Positions 1 through 4,421 of a stretch of DNA of 4,421 nt are shown here, in pieces. Origin of the DNA: a virus (taxonomy: Duplodnaviria; Heunggongvirae; Uroviricota; Caudoviricetes); the IMG/VR virus record IMGVR_UViG_2537562020_000009, one strand, 5' to 3'. The notes under the pieces were generated by a model. That model was given only the letters and a program-made list of their open reading frames with translations. It made no database searches and was not told the origin of the DNA. The position numbers were made by a program, and so were the translations under genes. Positions within the stretch are counted from its first letter, which is position 1. Every line of letters begins with the position of its first letter.

Positions 1-1
1 A

Positions 2-307
2 CGGAGGACAGTTGTGGCGCACGTTTTCGGTGAACGCACTCTGGCCACACTGGCGCGTCTTCTGAGCCTGCTGTCGGCCTTTGAGGTCGTGGTATGGATG
101 ACGGATGGCTGGCCGCTGTATGAATCACGCCTGAAGGGAAAGCTGCACGTTATCAGCAAGCGTTACACTCAGCGCATTGAGCGACATAATCTGAATCTGA
201 GACAACATCTGGCAAGGCTGGGACGGAAGTCACTGTCGTTCTCAAAATCGGTGGAGCTGCATGACAAGGTCATCGGGCATTATCTGAACATAAAACACTA
301 TCAGTAA
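2..307 (+). CDS. insB: IS1 transposase InsB, C-terminal part (5' end outside window)
   Basis: The translation (...[70 protein letters not shown]) is the recognisable InsB C-terminus. The frame is open from the window edge and the TAA stop at 305-307 lies inside the terminal repeat, as in IS1. Confidence 0.9.
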
Positions 308-322
308 GTTGGAGTCACTACC
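300..322. repeat. IS1 terminal inverted repeat (insB-proximal end) of the left copy
   Basis: The reverse complement ggtagtgactccaacttactgat matches the IS1 end motif and pairs with 4101-4123 (ggtaatgactccaacttattgat) in inverted orientation. Confidence 0.85.
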
Positions 323-343
323 CCGCGATTTGAACGAGAAGGT

Positions 344-1393
344 TTGCTGATTGAAGGACAGAGAACAAACTATTTCAGAAATTCAAATACACCAGAAGCA
401 TGGAATAACACGGGTAGTGTGTCTGTTGAGTCGTTCGACAGTGATAAGGGGTTTAACTATGGAAGGATAACTGTTATTAATGAAAATCCGACAGCACAAG
501 GATATCAGGCAATTGCTGTAAACACGAATGATGCTTACACCTGCCCGGCAGGTTCTTATACGACGATATCGTGTCTGACGAAAAGTGATAATTCCCGGTG
601 TCGTGCAAGGTTCGGAAAAATGTCTGATAATGGTGCGTTTGTTTTTCATTCAGATGCAGTTCTGGATCCTGTTACGGGAAATGTTGTTCATGGAAATAAT
701 GTGACGGTGACGGCAGAAAGAGTCGGTGAATGGTGGTTGTTTACCGCCACTCTTTTTGCAGATGCGGAAATGATAATCAGCTCAAGATTTGAAATCCTGG
801 CGATGCCTGGAATCAGTATTATCCCCAATGGCTCTACGTTAGATATTGCGATGCCTCAGGCGGAGATTGGGTCGTACAGGACGTCATTTATCATTACTGA
901 AGGGGCTCCTGGCACTCGCTCCAGCGACATGGTGACAATACCTGTAAGAAACAATATTCACCGATTACCATTCAGTGCTCTTGTTGAAGTTAATAAAAAC
1001 TGGGATATCCCTCCCAGCAAATCACCATTAATCTTTAATGTTAAAGATTATCAGGAAAATGGTCTGTTCACGCATGGATTCCGTGGTAATAATTTCTCTG
1101 ATGCCGGTTCTCCTTTTATTTCTATGGGAGGGTGTAATAAATATGTGGCAACAACCCAGAGGAAAATCATTTCAGGCTTCCGTTGTGGCGCTGATGGAGA
1201 TGTTCAGGCCGTATGTAATGGTGAATTATCTGTTGCGGCAAAAACAACATGGACTTCAATTGTTCCACGGGCAGTATTGCGAATTGGAGGGCAGGGCACT
1301 AATGGGGAGTATCATCTTTTTGGTCATATCCGTAATCTGCGTATCTGGCATAAAGAATTAACTGATGCGCAAATGGGGGAGAGTATTAAATGA
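344..1393 (+). CDS. Putative phage tail-fibre / receptor-binding protein, C-terminal portion; 5' end apparently truncated by the IS1 insertion (frame open back to 323, first usable start is TTG at 344)
   Basis: The 349-aa ORF is in frame with no stop all the way back to the IS1 boundary at 323, has no ATG near its 5' end, and its N-terminal sequence reads like protein interior. Its C-terminus (...LRIGGQGTNGEYHLFGHIRNLRIWHKELTDAQMGE) resembles a lectin-like (LamG / concanavalin-A-type) distal domain as found in phage receptor-binding proteins. It is followed by translationally coupled tail-fibre-type genes. The family assignment is from pattern recognition only. Confidence 0.5.
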   Translation: MLIEGQRTNYFRNSNTPEAWNNTGSVSVESFDSDKGFNYGRITVINENPTAQGYQAIAVNTNDAYTCPAGSYTTISCLTKSDNSRCRARFGKMSDNGAFVFHSDAVLDPVTGNVVHGNNVTVTAERVGEWWLFTATLFADAEMIISSRFEILAMPGISIIPNGSTLDIAMPQAEIGSYRTSFIITEGAPGTRSSDMVTIPVRNNIHRLPFSALVEVNKNWDIPPSKSPLIFNVKDYQENGLFTHGFRGNNFSDAGSPFISMGGCNKYVATTQRKIISGFRCGADGDVQAVCNGELSVAAKTTWTSIVPRAVLRIGGQGTNGEYHLFGHIRNLRIWHKELTDAQMGESIK

Positions 1394-1671
1394 AAGATTT
1401 AACACTCAAATTTGCAGACAGGGCCGACTTTTCGGCCTTTATGGAGAGTATTGGCTATTATGATGACGAGTCGATGCAGGATGATATTCTTATTGACGTG
1501 ATAGGTAACGTGTACAAAGAAACCGGAGAACTGACTGAAGATGGCGAACCGGTATGTGTTAAGGAAGACGGATATTTTGTAAACGTGCGCATCATTAATG
1601 ATGTAAAAAAATCGTCAATATTCGATAAATACGCGGTTGTTGTTGAGCATCAACTTCGTGGCTGGATGTGA
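1390..1671 (+). CDS. Small acidic hypothetical protein (93 aa), phage-associated
   Basis: Its ATG overlaps the upstream stop (ATGA at 1390-1393) and a G-rich Shine-Dalgarno (gggggag, 1376-1383) precedes it. Composition is strongly acidic (about 20 D/E against 10 K/R by count). I recognise no family. Confidence 0.55.
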   Translation: MKDLTLKFADRADFSAFMESIGYYDDESMQDDILIDVIGNVYKETGELTEDGEPVCVKEDGYFVNVRIINDVKKSSIFDKYAVVVEHQLRGWM

Positions 1672-1680
1672 GGGAGACAA

Positions 1681-2385
1681 ATGGCTACATCGACAGTAAT
1701 TCCAGGAGATATCACCACGCTAAAGGGAGATGTCAGTAAAACTAAGGAAGATATTTCCTCAATTAACGGAAAAGTATCAACGCTTCAGACTGATATGACC
1801 AGTGCAAAGCAGGATATCAGCACCAGATACACAAAAACTGAAGTTGATAATAAGCTGAAAAACAAACTGGAAGTGAACGATCTGGAAAGCGGTCGTTATG
1901 GTGGAGATTTTTACCCGTTGACTGGCCGTGAAGCGTTTTATATGTGGGGATTGGGCACGACTACAGCGGCGGCAAACCTTTATCTTAATCCTGACCCTGC
2001 AATTTCGTCTGTACTGCGGTCAACATCGTCTATTCGCTATAAACATTCAGTAGAGACGATAGATTCAGAGCACGCCGATCTCATTTTCAGGATGCGCCCT
2101 GTGTGGTACAGGTCGCAATGCGAAAATGACAGGCGTGACTGGGGATTCTACGGATTGATTGCCGAGGAAGTAGGAGAAATTGCCCCTCAGTTTGTACACT
2201 GGCGACCAGCTAACGAAGATGATGCTCCTGAAGCTATTTCCAGCAATGGCCTTGTTGCCGAAGGTGTAATGTACGAACGTCTGGTTGTTCCACTGATTCA
2301 CCATATCCAGAAGCTGACTGAAAGAGTTGATGAACTTGAGTCAGAATTAAAGTTGTTATCCGTTTCCCGAAGCGATATCGGATAA
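1681..2385 (+). CDS. Short tail-fibre-domain protein with C-terminal intramolecular chaperone / autoproteolytic domain (peptidase S74-like)
   Basis: The C-terminal ~120 aa show the characteristic pattern of endosialidase / T5 L-shaped-fibre chaperone domains: S-I-R-Y-K-H-S-V-E-T-I-D (Ser/Lys region), then DLIFRMRPVWYR, then GLIAEEVGEIAPQFV, then GVMYERLVVPLIHHIQKLTERVDELESEL. The N-terminal ~60 aa are a low-complexity repetitive S/T/K/D segment (DITTLKGDVSKTKEDISSINGKVSTLQTDMTSAKQDIS). An AGGGAG Shine-Dalgarno lies at 1671-1676. Confidence 0.7.
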   Translation: MATSTVIPGDITTLKGDVSKTKEDISSINGKVSTLQTDMTSAKQDISTRYTKTEVDNKLKNKLEVNDLESGRYGGDFYPLTGREAFYMWGLGTTTAAANLYLNPDPAISSVLRSTSSIRYKHSVETIDSEHADLIFRMRPVWYRSQCENDRRDWGFYGLIAEEVGEIAPQFVHWRPANEDDAPEAISSNGLVAEGVMYERLVVPLIHHIQKLTERVDELESELKLLSVSRSDIG

Positions 2386-2395
2386 AGGAGGAGTA

Positions 2396-2689
2396 ATGGA
2401 TATAACACCTTTCCTTCATGCGCTTTGTGCTGTGGCTGCGCAGCTACTGATTGGTCTTTTTACCGGGAACTGGGCTTACGGGGCGATAGCCGGTTGTACG
2501 TTCTTCATTGCGCGTGAACACACCCAGGCAGAATATCGCTGGATCGAAATGTTCGGGCATGGCAAGCGAATGAATATGCCGTGGTGGGGCGGTTTTGATA
2601 CACGTGCATGGGATGTGGCAAGCCTGATGGATTTTGCTGTGCCGGTGGTGGCGTGTCTGCTGGTCTGGCTGTTGGTTAATCGTGGGTGA
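2396..2689 (+). CDS. Small hydrophobic (2-3 predicted transmembrane segments) membrane protein, 97 aa; function unknown
   Basis: A strong Shine-Dalgarno (AAGGAGG, 2385-2391) sits 4 nt upstream of the ATG. Two long hydrophobic stretches (LHALCAVAAQLLIGLFTGNWAYGAIAGCTFFIA and VASLMDFAVPVVACLLVWLLV) flank a charged, aromatic-rich loop. It is preferred over the antisense ORFs at 2444-2790, which lack such signals. Confidence 0.6.
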   Translation: MDITPFLHALCAVAAQLLIGLFTGNWAYGAIAGCTFFIAREHTQAEYRWIEMFGHGKRMNMPWWGGFDTRAWDVASLMDFAVPVVACLLVWLLVNRG

Positions 2690-2820
2690 AAAAAGGTGAG
2701 CTGTATATGCAACGGAGGAAGAAAACTCGTTGCTGGAAGCCTGGAAAAAGTATCGGGTGCTGCTAAACCGTGTGGACACTTCCGTAGCACCAGATATCGA
2801 GTGGCTTATTCAACCATAAT

Positions 2821-3364
2821 AAACAGTATGTATATCATAGGTTATTAATTGTGAGTTTTTTCGGTGTGTTATTTGTTTGTTTGATGTTATGCTTTTGCGC
2901 CCCAAAAGGTTGTTTAGATGTATTTTATCAATTGATTTTCAATGTCGTTTAATAAAGAAAAATTAAGCAAGCTGGATGTTGGTTTTTTGTTAATTGAATG
3001 GTTCTAATAATGTTTTTTTACTGTTGTTGAATGTGACTTGATAAGAAATGCAAGTAAAAATGATACTCTTTTTATTTTAAATTCAAACGGTTGACATATA
3101 TATAGCAAGAGGTTTCAGGTGCGTTGTAGTGAGTTTATGTTAATAAAAAGTATAGTAAGCGTTGAAAAATGTAACTTTGAAATACGTTAGAATAAAAAAC
3201 AATATACATATAATAATTTAATCTTAAATGAAATTTATTAAAATTTGCAAACTATAATTTTGTGTATAAAAATATAAATGCACATCATCCTGATTATGAT
3301 TGTGTATTTAATTGGTTGTTATTTGACTGCTATCAACTTGTTTTAATTTTATGATAGGTGCAAG
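2821..3364 (+). promoter_or_regulatory. Extremely AT-rich intergenic regulatory tract upstream of the AraC-family regulator (candidate promoter and nucleoid-protein binding region)
   Basis: Hand count gives 136 G+C in 540 bases (about 25%), with many A/T tracts. Contains a perfect TATAAT at 3209-3214 (weak -35 candidates only), a TTGACA at 3091-3096 without a good -10, an ArcA-box-like 15-mer at 3139-3153 (11/15 to GTTAATTAAATGTTA), and an AGGTG Shine-Dalgarno at 3356-3360 for the downstream gene. Exact promoter positions are not determinable from sequence alone. Confidence 0.45.
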
Positions 3365-4105
3365 ATGGATTATGTTTGCTCCGTAGTTTTCATCTGTCAA
3401 TCATTTGATTTAATTATAAACAGGAGAGTTATCTCGTTCAAAAAAAATTCATTGTTTATTGTAAGCGACAAAATTAGAAGGGAGTTACCAGTATGCCCCT
3501 CTAAACTAAGAATTGTTGATATAGATAAGAAAACATGTTTATCCTTTTTTATCGACGTGAATAATGAGCTGCCTGGCAAATTTACTCTTGATAAGAATGG
3601 CTATATTGCTGAAGAGGAACCTCCATTATCGCTTGTTTTTTCTCTGTTTGAAGGGATTAAAATAGCAGACTCACACTCCCTTTGGTTAAAAGAAAGACTA
3701 TGTATATCCTTACTTGCCATGTTCAAAAAACGCGAAAGTGTAAATTCATTTATACTAACAAATATAAATACATTTACCTGTAAAATTACTGGAATAATCA
3801 GTTTTAATATTGAGCGGCAATGGCATTTAAAAGATATTGCGGAATTGATTTATACGAGTGAAAGTTTAATAAAAAAAAGATTAAGGGATGAAGGAACGTC
3901 ATTTACTGAAATATTGAGAGATACTAGGATGAGGTATGCAAAAAAACTCATAACTTCAAACTCTTATTCTATCAATGTCGTAGCCCAGAAATGTGGCTAT
4001 AACAGTACTTCATATTTCATATGTGCATTTAAAGATTATTATGGTGTCACGCCATCTCATTATTTTGAGAAAATAATCGGCGTCACAGATGGAATAAACA
4101 GGTAA
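3365..4105 (+). CDS. appY: AraC/XylS-family transcriptional activator, AppY-like; the final codon and stop codon are supplied by the adjacent IS1 end
   Basis: The C-terminal ~100 aa form a typical AraC-type double helix-turn-helix region ([44 protein letters not shown]...[29 protein letters not shown]). The N-terminus [21 protein letters not shown] matches my recollection of E. coli AppY. The gene is low-GC with an AGGTG Shine-Dalgarno, and the ORF ends ...GINR-stop, where the AGG codon spans the junction (4100-4102) and TAA (4103-4105) lies inside the IS1 end. Confidence 0.7.
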
Positions 4106-4123
4106 TGACTCCAACTTATTGAT
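4101..4123. repeat. IS1 terminal inverted repeat (insB-proximal end) of the right copy
   Basis: ggtaatgactccaacttattgat is the canonical IS1 end sequence, inverted relative to 300-322. Confidence 0.85.
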
Positions 4124-4421
4124 AGTGTTTTATGTTCAGATAATGCCCGATGACTTTGTCATGCAGCTCCACCGATTTTGAGAACGACAGCGACTTCCGT
4201 CCCAGCCGTGCCAGGTGCTGCCTCAGATTCAGGTTATGCCGCTCAATTCGCTGCGTATATCGCTTGCTGATTGCGTGCAGCTTTCCCTTCAGGCGGGATT
4301 CATACAGCGGCCAGCCATCCGTCATCCATATCACCACGTCAAAGGGTGACAGCAGGCTCATAAGACGCCCCAGCGTCGCCATAGTGCGTTCACCGAATAC
4401 GTGCGCAACAACCGTCTTCCG
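4116..4421 (-). CDS. insB: IS1 transposase InsB, C-terminal part (5' end outside window)
   Basis: The minus-strand translation (...[68 protein letters not shown]...NIKHYQ) is InsB. The frame is open to the window edge and the stop lies at 4116-4118. Confidence 0.9.

Follow-up and report, generated by a model that had tools for sequence, protein, structure and literature searches.

Among the closest described systems, T5 pb1 and the DT57C proteins LtfA and LtfB end in a C-terminal S74 chaperone with a Ser-x4-Lys dyad; these fibres measure ~1,000–1,400 aa and display large receptor-binding domains. The DT57C lateral fibre is branched and made of two proteins, the second being attached via the first (PMC10713586). 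The chaperones of K1F endoNF (3gw6) and of the GA-1 neck appendage (3gud) fold the long triple beta-helix stalk of a large enzyme and carry a C-terminal trimeric coiled-coil helix. The ICA domain of MyRF (7dc3), a eukaryotic membrane-bound transcription factor, also uses a Ser-Lys dyad and is cleaved in a trimer-dependent manner. The dyad is indispensable in both MyRF and endoNF and, among the MyRF residues tested, only the Ser and the Lys were indispensable (PMC8326128).

The window analysed here is the whole 4,421-nt stretch of the Caudoviricetes record IMGVR_UViG_2537562020_000009, and it displays the following features:

1–322, plus strand: IS1 end with the 3' part of the transposase (ORF 14–307; Pfam DDE_Tnp_IS1, E = 6e-51)
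323–1393, plus strand: 3' remnant of a lambda-type Stf gene, ~356 codons, with a variable distal lectin-type domain and without the N-terminal virion anchor
1390–1671, plus strand: gene of the 93-aa constant Stf partner, a compact alpha/beta protein, its start overlapping the Stf stop (ATGA)
1681–2385, plus strand: gene of the small putative tail-fibre protein, 234 aa, 26.2-kDa precursor, with a C-terminal intramolecular chaperone
2396–2689, plus strand: gene of a 97-aa membrane protein, the last block gene in temperate phages (phrog_1443, E = 3e-58)
2709–2819: separate Tfa C-terminal remnant

The order side or lateral tail fibre, 93-aa protein, small S74 protein and 97-aa membrane protein is conserved as a block in lambdoid prophages, T1-like Drexlerviridae and Queuovirinae, the 97-aa gene being missing from the T1-like and Queuovirinae versions. 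The block has an operon layout, with genes that overlap or are closely spaced and a Shine-Dalgarno sequence for each; internal promoters or terminators in the block gave no signal above chance, and PADLOC gave no hits pointing to a defence role of the 93-, 234- or 97-aa proteins. The 97-aa protein is 87–100% identical across prophage loci; the phage 21 copy, at 95% identity, bears the annotation of a membrane protein and has two TMDs. Its gene is likely a lysogen-expressed accessory gene.

The 234-aa ORF starts with an ATG located 5 nt downstream of the Shine-Dalgarno sequence GGGAG. Intact ORFs of 221–241 aa were found in 83 of 83 related loci, with a stop codon 9 nt ahead of the start codon in 78 of them, and dN/dS across the 83 loci is 0.14 overall and 0.11–0.22 per segment. 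The gene is intact and under purifying selection. The first-pass annotation had itself named a frameshifted 3' part of a longer gene as the finding that would undo its reading; this was ruled out, the upstream frame being closed in the 78 loci and no longer ORF being present. The 93-aa and 234-aa ORFs lie in one frame within the window. TGA readthrough joining the two was ruled out as well, by KarlJaspers, in which the two genes overlap in different frames.

The protein aligns to positions 1147–1384 of a 1385-column PHROG profile, because long Stf proteins have only the C-terminal ~190 residues in common with it. An exhaustive HMMER scan of 1.84 billion representatives found 3,614 relatives, in which the match lies nearly always at the C-terminal end of the protein. 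About one sixth of the best 150 of these relatives are shorter than 300 aa, several being apparently complete at 221–242 aa, and orthologues range from 221 to 269 aa; to that extent the initial description of the protein as unusually short has to be relaxed, while otherwise it stands. Searches of Pfam, NCBIfam and PHROG gave no match of the 234-aa protein to assembly families of the Tfa, gp38 or Mu-U type.

The C-terminal half contains two of the features on which our reading depends:

2026–2382, plus strand: Peptidase_S74 intramolecular chaperone, residues 116–234, a predicted 13.8-kDa fragment with a coiled-coil helix at residues 198–233
2023–2043, plus strand: predicted autocleavage site between Thr115 and Ser116 (ACA/TCG, 2023–2028), with Lys121 (AAA, 2041–2043) as general base

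Profile, fold and invariant dyad all identify residues 116–234 as a true intramolecular chaperone of the Peptidase_S74 type. Pfam Peptidase_S74 (PF13884) matches residues 116–172 with 27.1 bits (E = 5e-6; gathering cut-off 22 bits) over profile positions 1–57 of 58, Ser116 being aligned with position 1. The first-pass annotation, which had recognised an S74-type domain in this half of the protein and proposed such a search, with the lack of a profile hit as grounds against it, was correct in this respect. In the AlphaFold2 monomer pLDDT is ~90 across residues 121–230, and the only significant Foldseek matches in the PDB were MyRF 7dc3 (the best structural match, with E = 1e-5, probability 1.00 and 26% identity across 122 columns) and two intramolecular chaperones of phages, 3gud and 3gw6. 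By sequence, phmmer ranked DT57C LtfA first among solved structures, with a match to residues 952–1068 of the L-shaped tail fibre chain 8hqz_d (1076 aa; E = 1.6e-7). Heptad a/d positions are 90% hydrophobic over residues 198–230, against 22% for the other positions, and the domain ends at the C-terminus of the protein.

Ser116 and Lys121 stand five positions apart where the domain begins, in the motif S116-S-I-R-Y-K121, which had been read accurately at first pass as lacking the Asp that often follows the catalytic Ser. Both residues are invariant in 33 homologues and correspond to S587/K592 of MyRF and S911/K916 of endoNF (PMC8326128). S117, R119 and Y120 are nearly invariant in the same homologues, long fibres included, and therefore the absence of the Asp is a trait of the subfamily; judged from this alignment, SSIRYK is a conserved subfamily signature rather than decay. 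The concern that catalysis was lost with the Asp proved unfounded, since the solved lateral fibre 8hqz_d has a Gly at this position, the subfamily has Ser throughout and, of the residues tested in MyRF, only the Ser and Lys could not be dispensed with. We predict that the 234-aa protein cleaves itself between Thr115 and Ser116, in which case the 26.2-kDa precursor would yield products with computed masses of 12.5 and 13.8 kDa.

Exactly 115 residues precede Ser116, in which we distinguish:

1681–1728, plus strand: conserved N-terminal segment, residues 1–16 (MATSTVIPGDITTLKG), a putative docking element
1702–1878, plus strand: heptad-repeat coiled-coil stalk, residues 8–66, by heptad pattern and predicted helices
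1876–2025, plus strand: small pre-cleavage tip, residues 66–115, with a conserved TTTxxAN...RSTS motif, the distal end of the putative mature fibre

Between lambdoid and T1-like orthologues, residues 1–16 are 75% identical and the catalytic core 72%, while the figure falls to 30% in the stalk (residues 17–65). Residues 1–16 also match the N-termini of phrog_4563 and phrog_19752, and this segment may act as a docking element; N-terminal conservation between alleles could also come in part from a recombination breakpoint rather than from docking. In residues 8–66, heptad a/d positions are 69% hydrophobic versus 9% elsewhere, and the AlphaFold2 monomer has helices at residues 11–47 and 52–62. This stalk resembles the coiled coils of trimeric fibres as well as the trimeric one of the tail needle gp26 (4lin). 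Its length differs by whole repeats among orthologues, as in fibre shafts, which accounts for the spread of orthologue lengths. The tip has a dN/dS of 0.11, an invariant N99 and nearly invariant T94 and R113, and its homologue in long fibres is the stretch of ~30 residues just ahead of the cleavage site, matches starting at query residue ~80–93. AlphaFold2 confidence in the monomer is low over residues 62–113, as would be expected of an intertwined trimer.

The third slot of the block is optional and exchangeable. The full-length 234-aa allele is present in 739 of 5,426 complete E. coli genomes (14%), and the viable temperate phages PhiR49_1, PhiR55_1 and IdasGreatGrand carry the small S74 gene, as do ~45 Drexlerviridae. 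The comparison of neighbours in intact phages that had been suggested at first pass finds the same fibre/93-aa/S74 block beside homologues in viable phages. In phage 21, Lambda_ev203 and 4A7 the slot is empty, while Stf, a 92-aa gene and the 97-aa gene are kept. In PhiR63_1, HannyBb, ESCO3 and JenP1 exactly the same slot holds a 343–351-aa 'tail fiber protein' or 'endosialidase chaperone' (phrog_4563), an allele that is near full length in 9% of complete E. coli genomes. It has the first ~30 residues in common with the 234-aa form (66% identity over residues 1–32), followed by an unrelated globular head of ~195–200 aa, in place of the coiled coil and ~50-residue tip, and by a canonical C-terminal S74 domain of another subfamily (Pfam 52.8 bits) with the motif S-D-R-D-L-K. 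It is flanked by the same 93-aa gene, and in temperate phages by the 97-aa gene too, these flanking genes being 90–100% identical across slot alleles. An N-terminus conserved among alleles that are otherwise unrelated up to the S74 domain, the mark of a branching receptor-binding protein, is what the slot displays; secondary receptor-binding proteins are described as docking on a primary fibre by a conserved N-terminal peptide (PMC13352976). The notion of a domain-donor cassette for fibre exchange survives in a different sense, as the whole gene is exchangeable and long Stf genes have recombined with its 3' part, the one coding for the chaperone (P0185, P0186).

The partner fibre is far more variable. 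The Stf remnant matches phrog_1419 'tail protein' at profile positions 433–793 of 793 (E = 5e-100) and the NCBIfam GTA_spike_fiber domain (E = 6e-19), and it shares 100% identity with the 3' end of the Stf gene that locus L004 has kept intact, which encodes 781 aa counted from the lambda-type N-terminus MAVQISG.... BLASTN against the intact loci L004 and L005 places the IS1/stf junction at 322/323, IS1 having removed the first ~425 codons, and the N-terminus of an intact Stf relative matches the solved lambda Stf anchor 9e7m (E = 1e-50). The Stf distal domain occurs as 14 types in 81 loci, only 33–40% identical to one another, with a variable centre between the conserved edges EPRFEKEGLLIEGQRTNY and LFGHxRNLRxWHKELTDxQ. 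The 93-aa protein tracks the Stf C-terminus, while the small S74 protein is 93–100% identical next to the 14 types. Such conservation beside a hypervariable Stf is unlike that of most receptor-binding proteins, and a structural or assembly role would fit it too.

We consider with moderate confidence that the 234-aa protein is a small trimeric accessory fibre, which would dock by its N-terminus, carry its own chaperone and cleave itself to a 12.5-kDa coiled-coil stub. It would represent the smallest allele of an optional accessory-fibre gene following Stf/LTF and the constant 93-aa gene. In this model, three chains would join via the C-terminal S74 chaperone, the last helix forming a trimeric coiled coil; the S74 trimer would then template the folding of the tip and zip the heptad stalk. 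Once the trimer has formed, the Ser116/Lys121 dyad would cut the Thr115-Ser116 bond and free the 13.8-kDa chaperone fragment. What is left would be the mature form, three 12.5-kDa chains wound into a coiled-coil rod ~8 nm long that ends in a very small beta tip. The first ~16 residues would attach to a constant site on the Stf/93-aa assembly and give a branched or extended fibre. From these features we infer, rather than observe, that the chains trimerise and cleave themselves, that the product reaches the virion, where it docks and that it may bind a receptor.

A fibre, and not a chaperone only, is suggested because the slot alleles keep their N-terminus and change head and S74 subfamily, because residues 1–16 are as conserved as the catalytic core while the stalk varies by repeats, and because complete lambda-type Stfs such as P0185 carry a related chaperone in cis. 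Stf itself does not need the S74 protein, given the empty slot of phage 21, Lambda_ev203 and 4A7 and the near-constancy of the S74 protein beside 14 divergent Stf distal-domain types. Hence, among the three readings offered at first pass, the minimal fibre is the best supported, by an intact gene under purifying selection, carriage by viable phages and an N-terminus in common with the larger fibre allele. A broader possibility, which we put forward only tentatively, is that the lectin-type Stf and LTF of lambdoids, Drexlerviridae and Queuovirinae, coliphages unrelated to one another, offer a universal 'socket', perhaps with the 93-aa protein, into which small self-cleaving secondary fibres would plug by a ~16-residue peptide; the socket might then be found empty (phage 21), with a headed fibre (343–351 aa) or with the 234-aa form.

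The accessory-fibre model has to be weighed against an assembly chaperone that acts in trans and never enters the virion, the S74 domain or the coiled coil aiding trimerisation of Stf or LTF. Orthologues in KarlJaspers, PeterMerian, KurtStettler and HMD-P4 are labelled 'putative lateral tail fiber chaperone' in GenBank, a label given by the depositors of several BASEL phages, the gene in every case directly follows a fibre gene without an S74 domain of its own, and its conservation beside a hypervariable Stf is what a general assembly factor might show. Moreover, the mature part is tiny and has no obvious receptor-binding domain; a tip of ~50 residues per chain is very small for such a domain and counts against an accessory fibre. 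Phage 21 and its relatives, however, do without an S74 gene although their Stf is of the same family and the 92-aa gene is present, and the slot alleles conserve the N-terminus rather than the chaperone, while the ~195-aa head of the larger allele would be superfluous for a pure chaperone. Purifying selection on the dyad and on the pre-cleavage tip is sensible only if cleavage in cis gives a product that is used. In addition, the Stfs here end lectin-like and not in the beta-helical end known as an S74 substrate, and the 93-aa protein is a better candidate for a Stf-specific helper. Endosialidase chaperone domains have been reported as inactive in trans, which we also count against this explanation. 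Altogether, a chaperone acting in trans appears unlikely and the label 'lateral tail fiber chaperone' poorly supported. Annotations of the small S74 proteins disagree, calling them fibre, chaperone or hypothetical protein.

A structural filler or cap differs from the accessory fibre in the final role only: the mature 12.5-kDa trimer would be a 'blank' stub that stabilises or masks the Stf/93-aa docking site and binds no receptor. The very small mature tip agrees with this, as does its conservation across hosts and Stf types, which the dN/dS of the tip reflects and which is unlike typical receptor-binding tips; the larger-headed allele can fill the same place, and transient chaperone 'caps' are described on fibres of other phages (PMC10579305). 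Yet phages with a null slot leave the site empty without apparent harm, and strong conservation could equally mean binding to a conserved receptor, so that we regard the filler as rather improbable. Direct data on the small protein did not appear in the BASEL papers, the SH6, Sfin-1, swan01 and KMI8 proteomics, the Gifsy-1 Stf paper and the RBPseg atlas. Virion proteomics of swan01, the one carrier of the small S74 gene for which such data came up, detected five proteins in all; the S74 protein is not among them, an absence that is uninformative.

The copy in the window is a separate matter. It is stranded and cannot act, because IS1 took the anchor half of its Stf and the element that hosts it, a defective prophage of the DLP12 type, has no tail genes. 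This agrees with the view that this copy is functionless as a protein, a passive remnant relevant only as a recombination substrate for incoming phages; lambda takes up DNA from defective prophages, DLP12 included, by homologous recombination (PMC3945230), and P0186 shows an exchange between the 3' end of the small gene and a long Stf gene. While true of the locus, this does not describe a family that is intact, selected and carried by viable phages, and the copy in the window is 100% identical to the copies beside intact Stf genes (L004–L009), so decay has not begun. As an explanation of the gene we find it very unlikely, and the decayed remnant proposed at first pass applies to the locus but not to the ORF.

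For the window itself there is only a modest practical lesson: the gene is intact, yet it is a passenger left stranded in a defective prophage. For the family, the small S74 gene is the optional third member of a module for host recognition, one that passes between temperate and virulent phages. Host ranges of T1-like, Queuovirinae and lambdoid phages would be better predicted once it is clear whether its product acts as a second adhesin, as a structural stub or in assembly. The putative docking peptide, together with a folding domain that removes itself, would also offer a compact base on which to engineer the tropism of phages or phagemids. If the socket exists, the 234-aa form after cleavage would rank with the smallest of known tail fibres, as a coiled-coil rod of 3 x 12.5 kDa with its ~50-residue tip; it would serve either as a new minimal adhesin that recognises some conserved surface structure or as a 'blank' by design, and siphovirus fibres would then have a natural plug-and-play route to a second specificity.

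S74 domains are familiar from large tailspikes and fibres, and the small family is a pared-down design of docking peptide, coiled coil, ~50-residue tip and chaperone. The contrast with the T5 and DT57C fibres lies in a predicted mature part of 115 aa, in a primary fibre (Stf/LTF) that lacks an S74 domain and in the gene of the 93-aa protein placed between the two fibre genes. The endoNF and GA-1 chaperones are alike in fold by Foldseek at ~15% sequence identity; both have the same Ser/Lys spacing and a like C-terminal helix, whereas here only ~50 non-helical residues lie upstream and the residue after the catalytic Ser is Ser, not Asp, throughout the 234-aa subfamily. MyRF serves as a model for the cleavage chemistry only. 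The lambda-type Stfs are closer in sequence, with 56–59% identity over query residues ~37–234, including the RSTSSxRYK site. P0185, a full Stf of 735 aa, has a chaperone of the same subfamily in cis, and the last 24 residues of P0186 are identical to those of the 234-aa protein. P0185-like Stfs combine the lambda Stf N-terminal anchor and a long shaft in one polypeptide, while the 234-aa protein lacks the anchor and has a short conserved N-terminus of its own; BLASTP gave no similarity of the 234-aa protein to PhiR49_1 Stf or KarlJaspers LTF, the Stf anchor being found only in the upstream Stf. Class TC7 of the RBPseg atlas combines an N-terminal coiled coil with a C-terminal S74 domain. Finally, the branched systems of the Klebsiella phages KP32, K11 and KP34 are described as placing a short conserved N-terminal peptide on interchangeable secondary fibres (PMC13352976). 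These are podoviruses with depolymerase tailspikes and the likeness is one of logic only, but it is by such a peptide that the 234-aa protein would dock.

The window is the distal end of an E. coli DLP12-type defective prophage and aligns at 100% identity to strain E1535 in the nohD-ompT interval, with the following features:

1-322 (+), IS1 end
323-1393 (+), Stf (side tail fibre) gene, last ~356 codons
1390-1671 (+), 93-aa ORF
1681-2385 (+), 234-aa ORF with the S74 domain
2396-2689 (+), 97-aa membrane-protein ORF
2709-2819 (+), 37-codon remnant of the Tfa tail-fibre assembly gene
between the Tfa remnant and appY, AT-rich spacer
3365-4105 (+), appY
4101-4421 (-), second IS1 end

Lying on either side of the fibre remnant and appY, the two IS1 ends are inverted and ~90% identical to each other. 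The match to E1535 comes in two pieces, the left IS1 of that strain being placed ~1.6 kb further upstream, ahead of ylcI and nohD; thus, the window's genome seems to differ from E1535 by an IS1-associated deletion or rearrangement. The Tfa remnant, a pseudogene in the E1535 annotation, retains the last ~36 residues of a lambda-type Tfa and shows that an older stf-tfa module occupied the site before the present Stf/93/234/97 block. The long, very AT-rich non-coding stretch upstream of appY (2850-3364) displays several weak promoter-like matches on both strands, none above chance.

The first-pass annotation had described an S74-type chaperone domain preceded by only ~110 residues, ~60 of them repetitive, and this architecture, with ~115 residues before the domain, was borne out by Pfam, structure prediction and heptad analysis. 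Peptidase_S74 matched residues 116-172 from profile position 1, with 27.1 bits (gathering cut-off 22). The AlphaFold2 model, computed from an alignment of 33 homologues, has a pLDDT of ~90 across residues 121-230. A Foldseek search of the PDB gave only three significant matches, the MyRF ICA domain (7dc3, E = 1e-5) and two phage intramolecular chaperones, 3gud and 3gw6. Among solved structures, chain 8hqz_d of an L-shaped tail fibre is the closest by sequence (E = 1.6e-7). HMMER retrieved 3,614 relatives from 1.84 billion representative proteins, and among the best 150 the match almost always lies at the C-terminal end of the protein. Residues 8-66 are predicted to be helical and resemble the trimeric coiled coil of the tail needle gp26, with a strong heptad repeat whose a/d positions are 69% hydrophobic, compared to 9% at the others. 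The chaperone domain is a clear S74/ICA family member with all four defining features, and self-cleavage is predicted.

Replacement of the Asp next to the catalytic Ser had been raised as a possible defect, an idea that did not hold. Ser116 and Lys121 are invariant among the 33 homologues, which include 350-410-aa proteins with lambda-Stf/T4-gp37-type repeats, while Ser117, Arg119 and Tyr120 are nearly so; therefore, RSTSSxRYK is a signature shared by a large subfamily and not a lesion. The solved DT57C-type fibre has a Gly after its catalytic Ser. In MyRF, the Ser and Lys equivalent to endoNF Ser911/Lys916 were the only mutated residues indispensable for cleavage (PMC8326128).

The ORF is neither a decayed or frameshifted remnant nor the 3' part of a disrupted longer gene: it is intact in 83/83 related loci (221-241 aa), with an in-frame stop 9 nt 5' of the ATG in 78 of them, and 33 alleles give a pS of 0.127 and a dN/dS of 0.14 (stalk, residues 8-66, 0.22; tip, 66-115, 0.11; chaperone, 116-234, 0.12). 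Full-length homologues were found by tblastn in the viable temperate phages PhiR49_1, PhiR55_1 and IdasGreatGrand (93-96% identical) and in ~45 T1-like Drexlerviridae (57-61%), while 739 of 5,426 complete E. coli genomes carry the gene full length. Long Stf proteins have the last ~190 residues in common with the 234-aa protein, which explains why the PHROG match falls at the end of a profile of 1,385 columns. One HMMER relative, P0185 (735 aa), is a complete lambda-type Stf that carries the same chaperone in cis; in another, P0186, the final 24 residues are identical to those of the 234-aa protein, which is a recombination trace. At 1669-1683 the 93-aa and 234-aa ORFs are in one frame, separated by TGA plus 9 nt. 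A readthrough fusion was rejected, as this arrangement is not conserved and the genes of the T1-like phage KarlJaspers overlap in different frames.

The gene order is J, lom, Stf (812 aa), 93 aa, 234 aa and 97 aa in PhiR49_1, and LTF (lateral tail fibre, 651 aa), 92 aa and 225 aa in KarlJaspers. Genes of the block overlap or lie 9-12 nt apart, each with a Shine-Dalgarno sequence, and no internal promoter or terminator signal above chance was detected in the block. Intact Stf starts with the lambda Stf anchor (9e7m, E = 1e-50), and the profiles matched by its distal ~350 residues are "head spike fiber" and concanavalin-like. Among 81 loci this variable distal domain falls into 14 types (<80% identity); its edges are conserved while its centre varies, and the other types share only 33-40% identity with that of the window. 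The genes that follow stay constant across loci (93 aa, 84-100% identity; 234 aa, 93-100%; 97 aa, 87-100%). In three loci (L080, L082, L083) the Stf C terminus and the 93-aa gene diverge together while the S74 gene does not; the 93-aa protein thus tracks Stf, unlike the S74 protein.

The 97-aa membrane protein (2396-2689; 3792-4085 in locus L086) is 95-100% identical in temperate phages whatever fills the slot between the 93-aa and 97-aa genes, phage 21 included, and the virulent T1-like and Queuovirinae blocks lack it, a distribution suggestive of an accessory gene expressed in the lysogen, e.g. for superinfection exclusion; PADLOC gives no match for it. Directly after the Stf/92/97 block, phage 21 and lambda-like gut phages related to it (L086, L087, L089) have the iron/manganese transporter operon sitABCD on the opposite strand (4177-7273, -), as cargo at the position taken here by appY/ompT.

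Searching with residues 1-70 alone retrieved PhiR63_1 and HannyBb, which encode a 346/343-aa protein in exactly the same slot, flanked by 93-aa and 97-aa genes 90-91% and 99-100% identical to the window's. This protein starts MATSTVIPDDIKTLKSDVSK and its residues 1-32 are 66% identical to the window protein; an unrelated ~195-aa region follows, then a terminal canonical S74 domain (Pfam 52.8 bits, motif S-D-R-D-L-K), with the S16 long tail fibre (6f45) as closest solved relative. The larger allele and its relatives occur in 18 phage records (coverage of at least 80%), including the virulent Queuovirinae ESCO3, JenP1/2, ChristophMerian and KurtStettler, and 512 E. coli genomes carry it near full length. 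The 93-aa family spans 183 phage records; in phage 21, Lambda_ev203 and 4A7 the 97-aa gene directly follows a gene of this family and the S74 gene is absent. Lambdoid and T1-like orthologues are 75% identical over residues 1-16, 72% in the catalytic core and 30% in the stalk, whose length differs by whole repeats. The slot is both exchangeable and optional.

In ESCO3 (L088, a Nonagvirus; 3501-4847), the 93-aa gene and the slot-3 fibre are, respectively, 92.5% identical to their counterpart in the E. coli prophage and 92% identical to that of PhiR63_1, which indicates that the module has recently passed between temperate and virulent phages.

The slot is optional, and its alleles keep the N terminus, differ in the middle and carry a chaperone of one or the other subfamily in cis; this is the pattern of small, interchangeable fibres with a common attachment peptide, presumably for docking, and the window's protein is the minimal allele. 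The earlier minimal-fibre proposal gains from a gene that is intact, selected, found in viable phages and shares its N terminus with the larger same-slot allele, although the fibre role itself is one we infer. A predicted cut at Thr115/Ser116 would convert the 26.2-kDa precursor into a 12.5-kDa mature chain and a 13.8-kDa chaperone fragment; the protein would trimerise, be cleaved, enter the virion, attach to a putative docking partner and perhaps bind a receptor. We found no proteomic or genetic data on the small S74 protein in the literature. Several GenBank records label it "lateral tail fiber chaperone", a role that is poorly supported: the Stf family functions without an S74 gene in phage 21, the part conserved between slot alleles is not the chaperone, selection acts on the Ser116/Lys121 dyad and on the tip before the cleavage site, and a helper specific to Stf would more likely be the 93-aa protein. 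Given the strong conservation and the tiny tip, the mature stub may be structural and not an adhesin.

In the window, IS1 borders the Stf gene at 322/323 and has removed its anchor and shaft, and the DLP12-type prophage lacks tail genes, so that the notion of a decayed remnant applies to the locus but not to the ORF. The latter is still 100% identical to copies beside intact Stf (L004-L009), and the window copy is thus recently stranded and non-decayed. Its only plausible relevance is as a recombination substrate, a role demonstrated for DLP12 with lambda (PMC3945230). The suggested domain-donor cassette is partly right, in a sense other than the original one: the 3' end has been exchanged with a long Stf (P0186) and the gene is exchangeable as a whole.

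Seven other proteins of 221-242 aa (P0211, P0212, P0258, P0259, P0286, P0206, P0323), which seem complete and stem from unrelated metagenomic lineages, carry a chaperone of the same RSTSS(L/I)RYK subfamily after only ~80-105 beta-rich residues with no coiled coil; very short S74 fibres may therefore have originated repeatedly. Coiled coil plus S74 is already a structural class in a fibre atlas, and the 234-aa family is named in databases, with no study of it found. By analogy, the protein may work like the secondary LtfB carried on LtfA in the branched lateral fibre of DT57C or like secondary receptor-binding proteins with docking peptides, but it is not homologous to such partners, to Stf anchors or to Tfa-type chaperones. 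Altogether, the 234-aa protein is an unusually reduced, stand-alone and optional form of a well-known fibre design.
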